DNA of 63,961 nucleotides, filler included, from Reclinomonas americana ATCC 50394 (GCA_048213135.1; 11 parts of 9 records of this genome joined end to end with filler, not necessarily neighbours in it); one strand, 5' to 3'; positions 3,001 to 59,874 are shown, numbered from the whole stretch's first letter. Made by a program: numbers and translations. The notes: generated by a model not told the origin, from the sequence alone.

Positions 3001-6000
3001 TGTCGGGATCTGCCACCGGCAAACTGCCGTCGTGCGACGTCGCCTCGCCTTCCTCTGACTCAGCGTCACCTCCCACAATGGCCGATGAGAATCCCACACG
3101 TGAACTCGTAATCATGGCCATGGCAGCAGCCATGCCGCTGCTGCTGGTAGTCGAGTGCGCTCGCATGCGCCGCTCAAACTCGAGCTGACCGGGGCTGCTC
3201 GAGATTGAGACAGAAACGTGAGCAGAGGACGGATGAGAGTAAATCACAGCTCCCGTCACGCACCGCAGCGACTGTCGTGGAAGTGACAGAGGCGGAGGAT
3301 GCTGTGGTGTCTGAGAGGATCGCTGCTGCAGGTCGAGAGCATTTTGCGTCATGCCACCGCGGATCAGCGGATTGGAGCCCTCTGCCACGCCAGTCAGCAG
3401 CGGTCATACACCTTGCGAATACACATACACACACCGGTGAATGTGGCCACTGCGGGTGCTGGTGGTACCATGTTGCGATCGAGCGACTGATACTTTCGCG
3501 AACCACTCGCTGCAACGACAATCTCGTGAGCAACAAATCTAGTAATGCGCGGCAGGGACAAGAGACACACCATTGAAGCTGGTACCAGAAGGGAAGGTGC
3601 TCGACCCGGAACCAGGCACGCCGATACTGGGCAGGGCACTGCTGTGCTGCCGCTGGCGAACGTGGGTTGGAGGGGCCACACGGCGCGAGAGAGCAGCCGG
3701 TAGCCGACGCGAACCGCCAGCACTGGCAGTCCCCAGGGACGACGATGTGGGTGCTGCAAGTAAACACACACACAATAACACAATGAGTGTGCCATATAGA
3801 GAGGCACACTGCCAAGCGCGACAAACCAGTCCGCTGCAAACGGAAGCACACGTCTGCCAGCTCAGAGACGGGCGAAAACAGGCGGCGGAAGATCGTGTTC
3901 TGGCCACTTGGCGGCAACGCTGCGAACAAAACAAGCACCAGTCGCAGTCAACAACGTGCAGGTGCACGAGTCGACCAACAACCACACGCACCAAACAGAG
4001 GCACATCGTCGTCAAATGTCGACCTCGTTCGAGTCACCGCGTCTGGAGACGACGGCTGGTACGGCTGGAACTGCATGCGGAACAACGACTCGGAACTCAC
4101 TGTGGTGGAATGTGAGTGCGCGGCTGTCACTTCTTTTGGGGGGTCTGTAACGTGGATTCGCTCACCAAGCGACTGTTCGTTGAGCGAGTTCAACTCCTCC
4201 GCCGACGGCACCCGTGAGAAGAAGTAACCACACATGAACAGGTAATCGACCAGACGATCACCGAGTCCCAGCGATTCCACCGCTTCGAGTCGCGCTTCGC
4301 TCGATCCTCTGCATCGGCAGTGTCAACAAGATGGAGAGAAATGCACACACACACACACAAACATTATGCACGCACATGTACGCAATGAGGGCCTCCAGCA
4401 CCAGCAGCTGGAACTCAAACTCGCTGGCGGCAATGTGCATCGCGTTCTGCGATTCCACCGTCCGCCCATCCGCAGCCACCTCCTGACCCGCCTCCAAATC
4501 ACTGAACACGACGCGGCAAGGCACAGGCGGTTAACAAATGTCACGACGCATTGCGTGCACACAGTGACACACACCTGTCAGAGGCATTGAGTCGCAGCGA
4601 CGAGGCCAACTTGGACGGCCAGCCCAGCGAATTGACAAGCACAGGAAGGCCACCGAACGCGGCAAACTTGTCGGTGCGCTCTCGCGGCAAATGTTCATGT
4701 TGGATGAGACGGCCGGCGACCAGCGCCAACACCGTGTTGAGGCGCATGAGCTGCGGAAAGTGCCGCCGACTCGTCAATGACCGTGCAATGCTCATGGTCT
4801 CCACCAAAATGGGGAACGTTCCCTGCGACACGGGAATTGAGAGAAAGTGAGCGCGACGACGGAGGGGTGTGTTATGTACCTGTGAAGCCAGCATCGCCAC
4901 CGATGCATGATCCCACTCCGACGACGCCTCTTGCACCACATTGCGCAGCGACAGCTCGCTGTCCAATTCCCACAATTTGATTCCCAGAAACGACGAGGTG
5001 ATGGAGAAACACTCCAACAGTTGCGACTGTGTCGCACAACATACGCAATCAATCAGTCACGCAAATCGTGATAAAATGGTGGCGAGCATGCGCCGCACCG
5101 TGAGAAATCCCAAGTACGACTCGTCCGTCTCTCGTAACCTGAGGGAGAGCATCACCTGCTCGGCCTCCGACAGGTCCTTCAGCTTGGTGTTGCATGCGCG
5201 GACAATCAAAAAGAGCCACGGGAACACGTCGTAGAATCGGAGGAGATCCAGCAAGCGGAGGTTGCGGGCAATTACCGCACACATGCGCACCATGGAGCGG
5301 CCTGGGGGCTTGGCAAACGACGCCTCCAGGTAATCGGAGCTCGACGCGGAGAACTCTGCACGCGGCATACGGTGAGCAGCGTGGACCATCACGAGGTGGG
5401 ATGCGACCAACAGACAAACAAACCCTCGCTCATGTACTTGGCGTACTCCTCCAGCTGATCCACCAGCCACTTGACCACGGGTGACGGAACACCGTCGGTG
5501 GCGCCTGCGCAGCGGAATGATCCCATCAGTTACTGCCTCACGACAGCGTGCAAGCGAAATCACACAACTGTCGTCGCCAATGCCACTGCTCTCGTTGTCG
5601 TACTGCCGCAGAAACTCGGTGACAAACTCGTCGCGCTGCGTGGGTCCCTGTGTACATCGCTCCCACAGACGGCTCAACGAGCGGCCCCCAAATGTGTGTC
5701 TAGGGAGAGGAGGAATGAGCACACACGCTCACGAGCCCAGTGCGGAGAGAGGGCGACGCAACGGCCAGTCGATGCCATCGTTGGGATCCACCTCCGGCAA
5801 CGATTCCGGCACATCCAACGCCGGCGTCACCAGATCGATTCCACTGCCACGCACAAACGTGGTGTTGCCGGCCGCCATTACACTGACCACGCCGCCGCCA
5901 CCAACAGCGCCACCACTGCCGCCACCCGCAGCTGTGCTTGCCAGTGGCGACGGAAGATCCGACGACAACAACCGTGGAGGCACAGCGACCGCCGACGTGG

Positions 6001-6094
6001 GTGATCCCACCACGCGTCCATCACTGCCACTGGCCCCCGAAGCACTGCCGCCACTCCTGGCGCGACCTCCGAACAGGCGTCGCAGAAAGCTCAT
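1..6094 (-). CDS. BEACH-domain family (neurobeachin/LRBA/Lvs-like) protein, N-terminal part; multi-exon, runs off the window
   Basis: Starts MSFLRRLFGG at 6094. Long ARM-like helical exons follow, then 'AHSITVMELKRLFQFL' and 'AFFDFSGFDS..WPGKKGYTVCLWLRLED..PRIFR', typical of the region entering the ConA/LamG-like domain of BEACH proteins. The BEACH domain itself is not in the window. Confidence 0.75.
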
Positions 6095-6751
6095 CCTCGT
6101 TGCTCACACGTGCTCCTGCTGCTGCTGCTGCTGCTGCGGATGGACGGATCCCGCGCCCCACAGACACACACACTCCTCCGGAGTACGCACACGCGGAAAT
6201 GAGGAGAAACACACGCCCGGATAACCCTATATGCGTGGCCGGAGTCAGTCTGCCAGTCAAGTCAACTCATTGTCTCACAGAGACACACATTGCTCTCGTC
6301 AAGACAACACACGCTGAAGGAGGGAATGAGGCGGAGAGAGCGCGCGCGCGCGGGAAGGGAGAGCGAGAGAGACACACACTGCGGAAGAACACGCGCATCA
6401 GGCTCCGACCTATGAAATACATTGACCGCGACTTTATCTCTCTTCCCCGCAGTCACACACACACAATGTGCAACACACAAAAGGGTGAGAGAGCAAGAGC
6501 GCGAGAGAGAAACACAGCGTGTCCTCTGCTGGCCTGCGGAAATCGCGGACATGCGTAACACACACATACGCACTCGCCCTCTCTCTCTTGCCGCCACTCA
6601 CTGTCTCTCTCTCTCTCTCTGTCCACACACCAGCGTGCAAGAGAACAACCGCGGCTGCGAGGAAGACGGCGACCAGATGATGATTGAGTGATTGAGTGAG
6701 TGTGGACAGTTTTCATTGACGTCATCTCTGTTGGTTTTTGTGCGAGAAAAG

Positions 6752-7870
6752 ATGGGCTGTGGCGGGAGCAGTCAACGAAGCGACGCGCCGGCGTTTGCGC
6801 CAATGTGCGAGGAGATTCTGGCGTGCGGGCAGGATGAGAAGCCGACAGAGGTCCTCAAGCGCGCGTTCACAAGAGCCGCAGCACCAGCAGGCGCCACTGG
6901 AGGTCTCTCTCACTCGCTCTCTCAGTGTGTGTGTCTCTCTCTCGTGTAACCATGTGTGTGTGTGTTCATGTGCGCAGAGTTGAGCGTCGTGTCGCTGGCC
7001 ATGGAGGTGCGTAACAGCAAGAGCCCGTTTTTGGTGATCAGACGTTATCATCTCACTTGTCTCAACACACACACGCACTCGCACACTCGCATGTGTGCTT
7101 GCTGTCACAGCTGCCGAATCTGTTCATGGATGCGATCCACTCGACGCGCTTTCAGGGCGCGGTCTCACAGTTGTTCTCTGGATCTTCATCGGCAAGTCGA
7201 TCCTTTACGCACGCACGCACACACACACACACACATACACGCGAGACACGCACAACGCTTGACAGACACAGAGCGGCTGCTGAGTGTTGTTTGGGGGGCG
7301 ACGGTCTATTTCCGAGGTTTTTTCGCGCCAATTGCTCACCGACTGTTGCCGTCGATCGCACGCAGGTCCACAAGGACAACGTGAATGTGTATGTGGAGAA
7401 GGCACACAAGGGTTCGTTCTGCTGCACACGTGTGTGCAGGGAGGCGAGTCACTGAGAGGCATCTGTGCGCAGCTTTTGTGACGGCCTTCCCGAACTATCA
7501 TTTCGGTGTGCCCAACCAGCAGCACGTGCAGCTGGCACTGCGAGGTGCGACGGCGACCAGTTGTTGTGATGGAGGCTTTGTCATTACAAGCAACCAATTT
7601 GTATTTCGTCGTGTACACACACAGGTGTGCTCAAGGTGTCGGGAAACAGCGACCAGTTGTTTGTGTCGCGGCAGGATTTCTGCCGCATGCTCGAGCGCGT
7701 CATGCTGGTCAGCTACATGTCGGGTGAGTGCGTGCCATTTTGTGCCCGCTGGTCGTGCCCGCTTGCTGAGACCGGTCGCCCCGTGCACAGAGTTCACGGC
7801 TCCCTCTGGCGATGCCGCCGGCGACACTCACGACGACGAGTACGGCGGGTACAGCACCGGAACGCAGTGA
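6752..7870 (+). CDS. Hypothetical N-acylated protein (MGCGGS), about 6 exons
   Basis: Exons join in frame (MGCGGSS...ELSVVSLAME|LPNLF...|VHKDNVN...|FVTAFPNY...|GVLKV...|EFTAP...GTQ*). Gly2/Cys3/Ser6 fits myristoylation plus palmitoylation. Probable GC donor at 7192. Confidence 0.65.
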
Positions 7871-59001: not shown

Positions 59002-59039
<38 letters not shown>

Positions 59040-59490
59040 CACAAACAGAGAGAGGGAGAGGGTATTTGAATCTCTTTTTTTTCGCGCACTCATTGCCGAC
59101 AGCAGCTGTGTTGTTTTGTGGTGCACTGCGCGCGCACTTCTAATAACGGCCTTACTGTACACGCGGAGAGAGGGAGAGAGAGTGAGCCACGTGACTGTAA
59201 CTTGTCTCATGATCAGACATACCACCTTCACTCTTGCCTCCTTGCTTTCTCTGAAACCTGTTGTTCTCTCCCTTGCACTCGTCATCTCGAGCCGATCGCC
59301 GAGATCCTTGCTCTTCATGATTGTCAGTTTGCACGCGCGCGCTGCGCGCAAGACCATGTTGGTGACACTCAAACCTCATGAAACTCACTGTCTGTCACAT
59401 GTCTCTCGTTCTCGCAGTTGTCTCTGGCGCCGGCAGCTGCATACTTCCGCCCTCTTTTGACACAAGCAAGCACAGCAGATCTAGAGTGCG

Positions 59491-59874
59491 ATGGGAGACA
59501 GTTGCGTGCTGCGCGAATATATACGACTCGCTGCTCTGCTGTGAAGATGCGCTGCGATGTTGCTTGTGGTGCTCATTTCTCTCTGTGTGTCTCGCGATGC
59601 GTGCAGCGGAGAGCATTTTCTCGGGAGCCAATCGTTGCGTCGCACCTTGCTTGCGAACGCAGCAATGTCTCTTGCTTATTGCATGCATGACAACTCACTG
59701 GTTTCATCTCAGCCCTACATACGACGCTCGGCTTGTTCCTCGTACAGGTGCCGTCAACTGCGCTGCGCTCTTTCTTATGCCTGCATGCAGTGAATTCACA
59801 GAGCTCTCTCCTTTCCACACACAGGTGGTCGTCATTCTCACCTTCACGCGCCTGCTTGCCGTGGTGTTGGCCAA
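59491..59874 (+). CDS. 5' end of a second KHA1/CHX-type antiporter
   Basis: Exons 59491-59500, 59607-59633, 59713-59747, 59825-59874 give MGDTESIFSGANPLHTTLGLFLVQVVVILTFTRLLAVVLA, matching the CHX N-terminus pattern 'G.NPL...L.LF..Q..I...TRLL'. Confidence 0.75.

Follow-up and report, generated by a model that had tools for sequence, protein, structure and literature searches.

A second class of 5' splice site, displaced by one nucleotide, in a 64-kb window of Reclinomonas americana DNA

Introduction

Recognition of 5' splice sites (donors) outside the usual register of U1 small nuclear RNA (snRNA) is generally regarded as an uncommon exception. Shifted (+1) register donors were reportedly described in mammals by Roca and Krainer in 2009, and bulge (+2/+3) register donors are said to have been described by Roca et al. 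in 2012; shifted-register sites are very rare in humans. The present study concerns an abundant class of donors, GTT(G/T)CGT, in a window of DNA from Reclinomonas americana ATCC 50394 (GCA_048213135.1). The window is the whole stretch analysed, 63,961 bases in which 11 parts of nine records of this genome are joined with filler, and all sequence counts, models and statistics refer to it. It had 56% G+C and many masked blocks. Introns with the donor GTT[GT]CG are called class B below, and introns with any other donor are called class A.

The known systems closest to class B are those in which U1 pairs out of register. Both the shifted register and the bulge (+2/+3) register were established experimentally in human cells, and according to Tan et al. 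2016 (PMC4856993), all validated non-canonical U1 registers account for 1.5% of 201,541 human sites, with only 68 sites predicted for bulge +2/+3. As in shifted-register sites, GT is followed in class B by U at +3, the consensus lies one base downstream, and the G of the donor could replace the G at the last exon position (-1G); the cleavage site is set by GU and not by the U1 register. However, class B comprised 25-31% of the short introns in the window, the shifted helix of GUUGCGU with standard U1 was unstable in modelling, and C at +5 was fixed. Class B also resembles bulge-register sites, since it has one extra intron nucleotide past GU and its later positions are read one late, but here the class is a major one, and it is depleted in -1G instead of gaining from it.

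Two anticorrelated donor classes, AG//GU and //GURAG, were reported in diverse eukaryotes, and anticorrelation of exon-side and intron-side strength (the -1G/+5G 'seesaw') was presented as general by Parker et al. 2022 (PMC9803359). A separation of two donor classes by LUC7 proteins has been reported (bioRxiv 10.1101/2022.12.07.519539). In those classes, as here, -1G permits weak intron positions and vice versa; yet they form a continuum in one register with +5G, whereas class B forms a discrete 7-mer that lies one nucleotide out of that register. Introns dependent on the minor spliceosome (U12-type) show a bias against -1G (PMC11347168). In Physarum, the minor system comprises more than 20,000 introns with changed signals, and U12 snRNA co-evolved with a changed branch motif (bioRxiv 10.1101/2020.10.12.336362). 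Like U12-type introns, class B is a second class whose intron-side motif is rich in information, which lacks an exon consensus and which is biased against -1G, and Physarum provides a lineage precedent for a very large class with a co-evolved snRNA. The differences are that the U12 5' and branch motifs were absent from class B and that its 3' signals were those of the ordinary introns. Finally, an alternative U1 with an altered 5' end was reported for the diplonemid Sulcionema specki (PMC12621601). Such a second U1 could pair through its 5' end with a divergent donor class; in S. specki, however, a C run faces G-rich degenerate donors, and for the window studied here the RNA is only predicted.

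No description of GTTGCG/GTTKCG (K, G or T) or of a comparable second donor class as a splice signal was found in searches confined to open-access literature. Searches for the GTTGCG motif returned primers and unrelated sequences only, and searches on Andalucia introns returned nothing relevant.

Results

Use of the GTT(G/T)CGT word as a donor

Donor usage was studied with a self-written gene finder, a dynamic-programming exon chainer that scored codon log-odds within open frames, kept account of the phase, and applied a prior on intron length and a matrix for acceptors. In its agnostic (donor-blind) version, every GT received an equal score, and the donor was chosen through coding potential, frame, acceptor and length. 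Three rounds of self-training of this version gave 169 introns. GTT[GT]CG was the donor in 36 of them, whereas 2.4 were expected from its share of the GT sites of the window (120 of 8,405), which is a 15-fold excess (p=4e-31). A version with learned donors gave 165 introns. Because this version can reinforce its own motif, counts from the agnostic model and counts on which both models agreed are also given below. The most frequent donor hexamer in the agnostic model was GTTGCG, with 26 introns (31 in the learned-donor model). The corresponding numbers were 10 and 11 for GTTTCG, 15 and 27 for GTGCGT, 7 and 10 for GTGTGT, and 5 and 8 for GTGAGT.

A preliminary description of the window, made from the sequence alone, had listed 30 coordinates of such donors and had presented them as an abundant second class. 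The motif was present at all 30 coordinates, GTT[GT]CG at 29 of them and GTTGTG at 5568; the coordinate of a minus-strand site is that of the G of GT. The agnostic model recovered 22 of these sites and the learned-donor model recovered 27, with 34811, 59501 and 59634 being absent from both. In addition, the models contained 16 GTT[GT]CG donors outside that list (marked as new in Table 1). This brings the tally to 42 modelled donors and three plausible ones. Class B introns were present in 13 of the 19 retained gene models and were most frequent in the SatP gene (6 of 8 short introns) and in a large membrane/coiled-coil gene (12 of 38). When the region of 27.6-33.6 kb was read by eye, short introns of approximately 60-80 nt with CAG or TAG at their 3' ends were seen, and approximately 10 of 26 started with GTTGCG or GTTTCG.

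The word itself was also counted. GTTKCGT had 55 matches on both strands, whereas 100 dinucleotide-preserving shuffles of the window gave 22.2 +/- 4.9, and none of the shuffles reached 55. One-letter relatives were rare (GTAGCGT, 2; GTCGCGT, 14; GTGGCGT, 10; GTTGAGT, 7). Thirty-six of the 55 GTTKCGT occurrences were used as predicted donors, and three fell within the 33.4 kb of modelled sense exons. Usage was high for both forms of the word, with 25 of 39 occurrences of GTTGCGT (one occurrence of which lay inside a modelled sense exon) and 11 of 16 occurrences of GTTTCGT serving as donors. Usage fell to 6 of 65 for GTT[GT]CG with A, C or G as the next base, to 1 of 41 for GTT[AC]CG, to 1 of 16 for GTTGTGT and to 0 of 7 for GTTGAGT; for GTGCGT, it was 27 of 127. 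The signal is therefore a discrete 7-mer with narrower requirements than an ordinary consensus to which a T has been added. The preliminary description was thus borne out by the word counts and the gene models as far as the discreteness and abundance of the class are concerned.

Nineteen copies of GTTKCGT were unused. Some of them were located in the 46-55 kb region without a gene model and may be donors of missed genes. Copies that lay outside gene models or antisense to them were found at 46486 (+), 48532 (+), 51330 (+), 54607 (+), 52566 (-), 53089 (-) and 54046 (-), and several of these words had a YAG 60-90 nt downstream. The 48-55 kb part of the window was poorly modelled; it may hold missed genes and hence further class B donors. 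One GTTTCGT (37633-37639, -), situated 12 nt past the modelled start codon of RPL35Ae, was read as exon; either it goes unused, as few copies of the word do, or it serves as an alternative donor. The commonest 7-mers in the window were (CT)n and (CA)n runs.

Homology test of the junctions

The preliminary description had maintained that conserved residues of PACRG, NifS, SatP and PNKP fix many of the junctions. Relatives of PNKP, PACRG, SatP and NifS-SelD were fetched with single exons as queries, and local profiles were built from 109 of 120 relatives for PACRG, from 100 of 120 for PNKP, from the 23 fused proteins among 120 for NifS-SelD, and from 25 of 88 for SatP, namely those that covered the upstream part of the domain. 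For each intron, all frame-keeping and stop-free GT...AG pairs within ±60 nt of the modelled ends were considered, and their products were scored against the profile. The GTT donor with its acceptor ranked first at 10 of the 12 testable class B junctions, as expected from the preliminary description, and the remaining two, 51630 and 42028, were uninformative. Ordinary donors were used as controls and ranked first in 10 of 10 cases (15594, 14229, 14505, 50391, 50274, 41362, 42355, 42556, 42732 and 42957).

An intron starting one base later (G:TT..., a colon marking the exon-intron boundary), with its 3' end displaced equally, was tried at the 10 top-ranked class B sites. This parse was never better, and it was worse at the five sites where the residue changes. 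Therefore, the introns start at the G of GTT.

Donor classes and the last base of the exon

The composition of the two classes was determined with a curated set of 140 introns, from which three antisense models over stronger genes, introns longer than 200 nt and introns with masked bases had been removed. Class A donors (n=100) had -1G in 79% of cases, +3G in 67%, +5G in 83% and +6T in 61%, in agreement with the ordinary donors of the preliminary description; at +4, they had C in 44%, T in 27%, A in 22% and G in 7%. In class B (n=40), the last base of the exon was G in 10%, A in 32%, C in 28% and T in 30%. At +4, G was found in 75% and T in 25% of class B donors; C at +5 and G at +6 were present in 40 of 40 by class definition. 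T at +7, which is outside this definition, was present in 88%. When aligned with the local G:GTGCGT, GTT(G/T)CGT had one mismatch over seven letters.

The rule that these donors nearly always follow an exon end other than G held, G being found before only 4 of the 40 class B introns. These were 1843, 8355, 8740 and 50971, two more than the exceptions named previously. In the curated short introns, -1G was thus present in 4/40 of class B and 79/100 of class A (Fisher p=2e-14). Similar values were obtained with the 103 introns identical in both models (4/32 vs 57/71, Fisher p=6e-11) and with the agnostic model (4/34 vs 63/103, Fisher p=3e-7). The level of -1G in class B was also below the codon-position background, with 4 cases observed vs 12.2 expected, a threefold depletion (p=0.003). 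Viewed from the exon side, the agreed introns with a non-G exon end (n=42) included 28 of class B and six with GTGCGT, and those with a G end (n=61) included only four of class B. The link between the second class and exon ends without G was therefore upheld.

Type of the class B introns

All 40 class B introns had GT...AG termini with YAG or RCAG ends and kept the open frame. A branch-like motif, C-T-(C/G)-A-C, was found separately in each class, with 6.0 bits in class B and 6.3 bits in class A, and its end lay at a median of 17.5 and 17 nt from the 3' end, respectively. RCAG acceptors occurred in both classes, and the median intron length was 69 nt in class B and 67 nt in class A. Since length, branch motif and acceptor were the same in both classes, class B introns appear to be ordinary U2-type introns, neither U12-type nor a mobile family. 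Judging from these sequence features, it is very probable that class B donors belong to real GT-AG introns of this ordinary type and that their 5' site is the discrete 7-nt GTT(G/T)CGT. Introns across the window were very uniform, with a median of 67-69 nt and with acceptors that were mostly GCAG or ACAG.

Signals of other intron kinds were sought in the same set. No class B donor matched [AG]TATCC, and [AG]TATCCT had two matches in the whole window. Within the final 45 nt, CCTTRAY was present in one class B intron out of 40 and in none of the 100 of class A. The lack of an exon-side consensus and the bias against -1G are U12-like traits that class B does have. With respect to introners, interior 8-mers were shared by 10% of B-B pairs, 12% of A-A pairs and 11% of A-B pairs, and among the best 30 of 62 BLAST matches, the sole B-B match was the donor end itself.

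Pairing with U1

Duplex energies were calculated with ViennaRNA duplexfold and the 11-nt U1 5' end given by Tan et al. (PMC4856993), used here as the standard U1 end. The mean energy was -6.15 kcal/mol for class A, -1.20 kcal/mol for class B and -2.5 kcal/mol for non-donor GT sites of the same genes. When the threshold was set at the strongest 5% of these decoys, 51-58% of class A sites and 0 of 40 class B sites lay beyond it. At four of the 40 class B sites, G+1 was paired with U1 C8, as in a bulged register, and at three it was paired with C9, as in a shifted one. The model sites GUUGCGU/GUUUCGU formed no stable bulged duplex (+0.5 kcal/mol, by a method different from the UNAFold of Tan et al.). 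With the standard U1 5' end, class B pairing was not more stable in the shifted register than in the canonical one, and the bulge +2/+3 register did not reach the advantage over the canonical one used by Tan et al. (ddG of -1 kcal/mol or better).

Altered guides were then scanned, either with U1 positions 4-7 varied (256 guides) or with up to three substitutions among positions 3-10 (1,789 guides). None of the 256 or 1,789 guides served both classes, the best one covering 45% of each. The standard U1 end was near-optimal for class A. Class B was served best by a guide that differed from this end in two substitutions, U5 to G and C8 to A; with it, the mean was -8.3 kcal/mol, and 82% of class B, but only 18% of class A, lay past the decoy threshold. 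No match at gathering scores was obtained when the window was searched with Rfam.

Individual donors and gene content of the window

The genes of the window were placed by a Pfam run on the 106 stop-to-stop frames that were 160 residues or longer (Table 1). Some neighbours are still fused in the gene models, for example, methyltransferase-like exons and NifS-SelD.

Three donors of the preliminary description were contained in neither model. At 34626-34975 (+), both models spanned the stretch with a single 350-nt intron. When read by eye, it could be divided into three introns, 34626-34706, 34717-34809 (GTACTG...CAG) and 34811-34881 (GTTGCGT...TAG), separated by micro-exons of 10 nt (34707-34716) and one A (34810) and followed by one of 25 nt (34882-34906), after which GTGAGT stands at 34907. 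This path is frame-consistent and would restore 12 codons. These codons may resemble a calpain active-site stretch; comparison of the short exons flanking 34811 with Pfam and the Protein Data Bank (PDB) yielded nothing useful. A 1-nt exon, or two adjoining introns, would be unusual. For 59501, an ATG at 59488 would give a 13-nt first exon and a frame-consistent 106-nt intron to CAG. A 79-nt intron to CAG could start at 59634, with the same frame continuing into an exon at ~59791.

Table 1. Genes and GTT-type donors in the window. Donors are listed by the first seven intron bases; "listed" marks sites of the preliminary description
Feature	Position	Strand	Gene or context	Support	Status
Neurobeachin-like gene	left end	-		Pfam	
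PNKP	13-15 kb	+		Pfam	
PACRG	15.3-16.1 kb	-		Pfam	
RRM protein	20-23 kb	+		Pfam	
TB2/DP1/HVA22-like gene				Pfam match below threshold	
RPL35Ae				Pfam match below threshold	
NifS + AIR-synthase/SelD domains	40-43.5 kb	+		Pfam	
GNT-I	44-46 kb	-		Pfam	
SatP	50-52 kb	-		identified via relatives	
Na/H exchanger	56-58 kb	+		Pfam	
GTTGCGT	756..762	-	neurobeachin-like gene	learned-donor model only	new
GTTGCGT	1495..1501	-		both models	new
GTTGCGT	1837..1843	-	after exonic G	both models	new
GTTGCGC	2239..2245	-		both models	new
GTTGTGT (variant)	5562..5568	-		both models; sole donor among 16 GTTGTGT	listed
GTTGCGT	5756..5762	-		both models	new
GTTTCGT	8349..8355	-	after exonic G	both models	new
GTTGCGT	8734..8740	-	after exonic G	both models	listed
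GTTTCGT	9311..9317	-		both models	new
GTTTCGT	9478..9484	-		both models	new
GTTGCGT	13149..13155	+	PNKP	learned-donor model; ranks 1/5 by PNKP profile	listed
GTTTCGT	14854..14860	+	PNKP	both models; ranks 1/10 by PNKP profile	listed
GTTTCGT	15473..15479	-	PACRG	learned-donor model; ranks 1/6 by PACRG profile	listed
GTTGCGT	15925..15931	-	PACRG	both models; ranks 1/7 by PACRG profile	listed
GTTGCGT	17697..17703	-	acyltransferase-like gene	both models	new
GTTTCGT	21519..21525	+	RRM gene	both models	listed
GTTGCGT	23079..23085	+	RRM gene	learned-donor model only	new
GTTTCGT	24436..24442	+		both models; 305-nt modelled intron, excluded from statistics	listed
GTTGCGT	25335..25341	+		both models	listed
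GTTGCGT	26097..26103	-		both models	new
GTTGCGT	28234..28240	+	large membrane/coiled-coil/calpain-like gene	both models; also by eye	listed
GTTGCGT	28436..28442	+		learned-donor model; also by eye	listed
GTTGCGC	29864..29870	+		both models	listed
GTTGCGT	30459..30465	+		both models	listed
GTTGCGT	30867..30873	+		both models	listed
GTTGCGT	31255..31261	+		learned-donor model	listed
GTTGCGT	31385..31391	+		both models	listed
GTTGCGT	32096..32102	+		both models	listed
GTTTCGT	32292..32298	+		learned-donor model	listed
GTTGCGC	32465..32471	+		both models	listed
GTTGCGT	33242..33248	+		both models	listed
GTTGCGT	34811..34817	+	after apparent 1-nt exon	probable donor, neither model	listed
GTTGCGT	36098..36104	+		both models	new
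GTTTCGT	41644..41650	+	NifS part of NifS-SelD	both models; ranks 1/8 by profile	listed
GTTGCGG	42028..42034	+	NifS-SelD linker (unconserved)	both models; ranks 3/6 by profile	new
GTTGCGC	43221..43227	+	SelD part	both models; ranks 1/2 by NifS-SelD profile	listed
GTTGCGG	45080..45086	-	GNT-I	both models; 315-nt intron spans masked block, excluded from statistics	new
GTTTCGT	45746..45752	-	GNT-I	both models	new
GTTGCGT	50708..50714	-	SatP	both models; ranks 1/8 by SatP profile	listed
GTTGCGT	50872..50878	-	SatP	both models; ranks 1/11 by SatP profile	listed
GTTGCGT	50965..50971	-	SatP, after exonic G	both models; ranks 1/5 by profile	listed
GTTGCGT	51099..51105	-	SatP	both models; ranks 1/12 by SatP profile	listed
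GTTTCGT	51624..51630	-	upstream of SatP domain	both models; four products tie by profile	listed
GTTGCGT	51853..51859	-	first intron of SatP gene model	both models	new
GTTGCGT	59501..59507	+		possible donor, neither model; by eye only	listed
GTTGCGT	59634..59640	+		possible donor, neither model; by eye only	listed

The very large gene model at 27145-36340 (+) had 41 exons, with many predicted membrane-spanning segments, then a long coiled coil and then weak hints of calpain, which came from two exons and were below threshold (Peptidase_C2, E=0.066; Calpain_III, E=0.06). It contained 13 of the 30 sites of the preliminary description.

NifS-like and SelD (selenophosphate synthetase) domains were located in one gene model, 40286-43490 (+). 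The NifS exon was 55-63% identical to bacterial proteins, many of which are fused NifS-SelD proteins of approximately 735 residues. NifS-SelD fusions in Acanthamoeba and Naegleria were attributed to transfer from bacteria (PMC4561486). The methyltransferase-like exons located upstream (38261-39921, +) were joined to the NifS-SelD model, which may be a false merge. A hairpin-like stretch at 40430-40585 (both strands), in a modelled NifS intron, gave weak matches to approximately 10 unrelated miRNA precursor families (best score 37.8 bits vs a gathering score of 62) and is probably a plain inverted repeat.

The nearest relative of the PNKP exon (13485-14585, +) among 5.8 billion proteins had 40% identity. 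The best named match of the PACRG exon (15595-15852, -) was in the jakobid Andalucia godoyi, with 90% identity, and the identity to heteroloboseans was 81-86%. On these comparisons, there seems to be no close sequenced relative of the organism in that protein collection.

A gap of 721 N was present at 12278-12998, as were ten paired blocks of 44 N with 12 readable bases between the partners (e.g., 16045-16088/16101-16144). Blocks of N interrupted several gene models, namely, the start of PACRG, NifS and GNT-I.

Discussion

The best explanation as a whole is considered to be that class B is a class of U2-type introns with a dedicated second reader of the 5' site, and its probability is estimated at roughly 0.45. 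Exons ending in G use the local standard donor G:GT(G)(C/T/A)GT, and in class B, the conserved C-G-T block stands one nucleotide deeper in the intron than in the standard site. According to this model, the second reader would recognise intron positions +1 to +7 with no need for contact with the exon. The simplest candidate for this reader would be a U1-type snRNA paralogue with a 5' end altered at the positions that face +2 and +5, modelled here as C to A at U1 position 8 and U to G at position 5. The usual U2, U5 and U6 steps would then follow, using a branch site and acceptor shared with the other introns, and -1G might be avoided because it invites competing binding of standard U1. The dedicated reader taken separately, most simply a variant U1, is given somewhat less than an even chance. 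The fuller picture of two 5' readers within the major spliceosome, with standard U1 serving G-ending exons and a second U1-type guide serving the approximately 30% of introns whose exons cannot have G at the end, through a helix one base off the cleavage site, is more doubtful still. The preliminary description had proposed either an alternative U1/U6 register or variant snRNAs, and of these two, the variant snRNAs appear to fit the data better.

Several points weigh against this model. The junctions were derived from our own gene models and protein homology, all of which are sequence-based, and the class B statistics come from a single 64-kb window. Eight of the 30 listed sites were not recovered by the agnostic model, and the learned-donor model can strengthen its own motif. 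The 5' end of U1 belongs to the best-conserved RNA sequences of eukaryotes and is nearly invariant among them. With Rfam at E<=1, no snRNA was found in the window, the matches being weak miRNA-like ones and one snoRNA-like one. The altered guides were fitted to the data and were not themselves observed, and nearest-neighbour energies omit pseudouridines and the U1C and LUC7 proteins, which strengthen imperfect duplexes, so that weak pairing is compatible with standard U1. Finally, G/T at +4 mirrors G/T at +3 of the ordinary donors, as a shared reader displaced by one base predicts, and T at +7 likewise mirrors their T at +6.

This last correspondence is part of the case for reading of class B by standard U1 (and U6), either with U at +3 (or +2) bulged or with the helix shifted so that G+1 replaces -1G. 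The motif is then simply the local consensus GTGCGT plus one T, its +4 G/T (75/25%) and +7 T (88%) being those of the ordinary +3 and +6; the non-G exon ends are expected from a compensating register, both registers have experimental precedent in human cells, anticorrelation of -1G with intron-side strength is general, and no new RNA is needed. However, modelled pairing of class B with standard U1 (-1.2 kcal/mol) was weaker than that of GT sites that are not donors, and although the registers exist in humans, they are rare there. Under any model with a single U1, H:GTGCGT (H, a base other than G) should pair at least as well as H:GTTGCGT, and the bulge or mismatch is a pure cost; yet at non-G ends, 28 class B donors were found against six with GTGCGT, which argues against a shared reader. 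The same is indicated by C at +5, which is near-invariant despite facing U or pseudouridine in standard U1, a mismatch, while the better-pairing GTTGAGT was used in none of seven cases. Moreover, although a bulged register should profit from -1G, this base was threefold depleted, which is again contrary to a shared reader. In nearest-neighbour modelling, reading by standard U1 with a bulge or shift has poor support, and this explanation is regarded as rather unlikely. Recognition might instead occur mainly in later steps or through proteins, with only a small role for U1 pairing; the candidates are contact of the U6 ACAGA box with +5 to +7 around a bulged U, a dispensable U5 loop 1, or proteins of the LUC7/U1C type. 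Class B would then be a local version of the general division of donors into exon-side-strong and intron-side-strong ones. The absence of an exon-side signal alongside a strong intron-side one, the poor pairing of class B with standard U1, and the anticorrelated AG//GU and //GURAG classes and LUC7-separated classes of other organisms are consistent with this. On the other hand, those known classes share one register, unlike class B with its block one base out of place, and a near-invariant 7-nt motif holds more information than a 3-nt U6 contact requires; this possibility is considered improbable.

The remaining explanations question the nature of the introns rather than their reader. Transformed and expanded U12-type introns, whose 5' motif co-evolved with U11/U6atac, would account for the information-rich intron-side motif, the lack of exon consensus and the avoidance of -1G, which are hallmarks of minor introns; GTTTCGT agrees with GTATCCT in 5 of 7 letters, and the Physarum minor system shows how far such a class can expand with changed signals. 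Nevertheless, no class B donor had [AG]TATCC, CCTTRAY was found in only 1 of 40, and the branch-like motif was alike in both classes in sequence, information and distance, so this origin seems very unlikely. A slighter chance still is given to introners, inserted elements with a GTTGCGT end that landed at sites without the usual exon-side G. The sharply conserved 5' end, the tight lengths (median 69 nt) and the missing exon-side consensus would suit such elements, and the intron phases, 13/11/16 in class B vs 46/32/22 in class A, differed slightly but not significantly (hand-calculated chi-square, p~0.09). Against them stand the sharing of interior 8-mers, no higher among B-B pairs than among A-A or A-B pairs, and the class A lengths, which are equally tight. 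The least probable explanation is an artefact in which junctions were miscalled and GTTKCGT is a motif of exons or intron interiors near the true donors. Although three listed sites are in neither model and the learned-donor model was self-trained, a 15-fold excess was obtained with the donor-blind model, ten junctions were top-ranked by independent protein profiles, and only 3 of the 55 occurrences fell in the 33.4 kb of modelled sense exons.

The 7-nt donor displaced by one base is the most frequent donor word in this window, and its use is governed by the last base of the exon. Gene finders with a single donor matrix would mis-call approximately one quarter of the organism's introns. If the class extends genome-wide, it would provide a natural system for studying what fixes the cleavage site apart from the U1 helix, as well as a test of the splitting of a core snRNA into specialised paralogues and of the shaping of splice signals by coding constraints at exon ends. 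If two readers do exist, they would represent an snRNA and a splice site that co-evolved across an entire class of introns. Class B suggests that this organism may have a second way of recognising the starts of introns.

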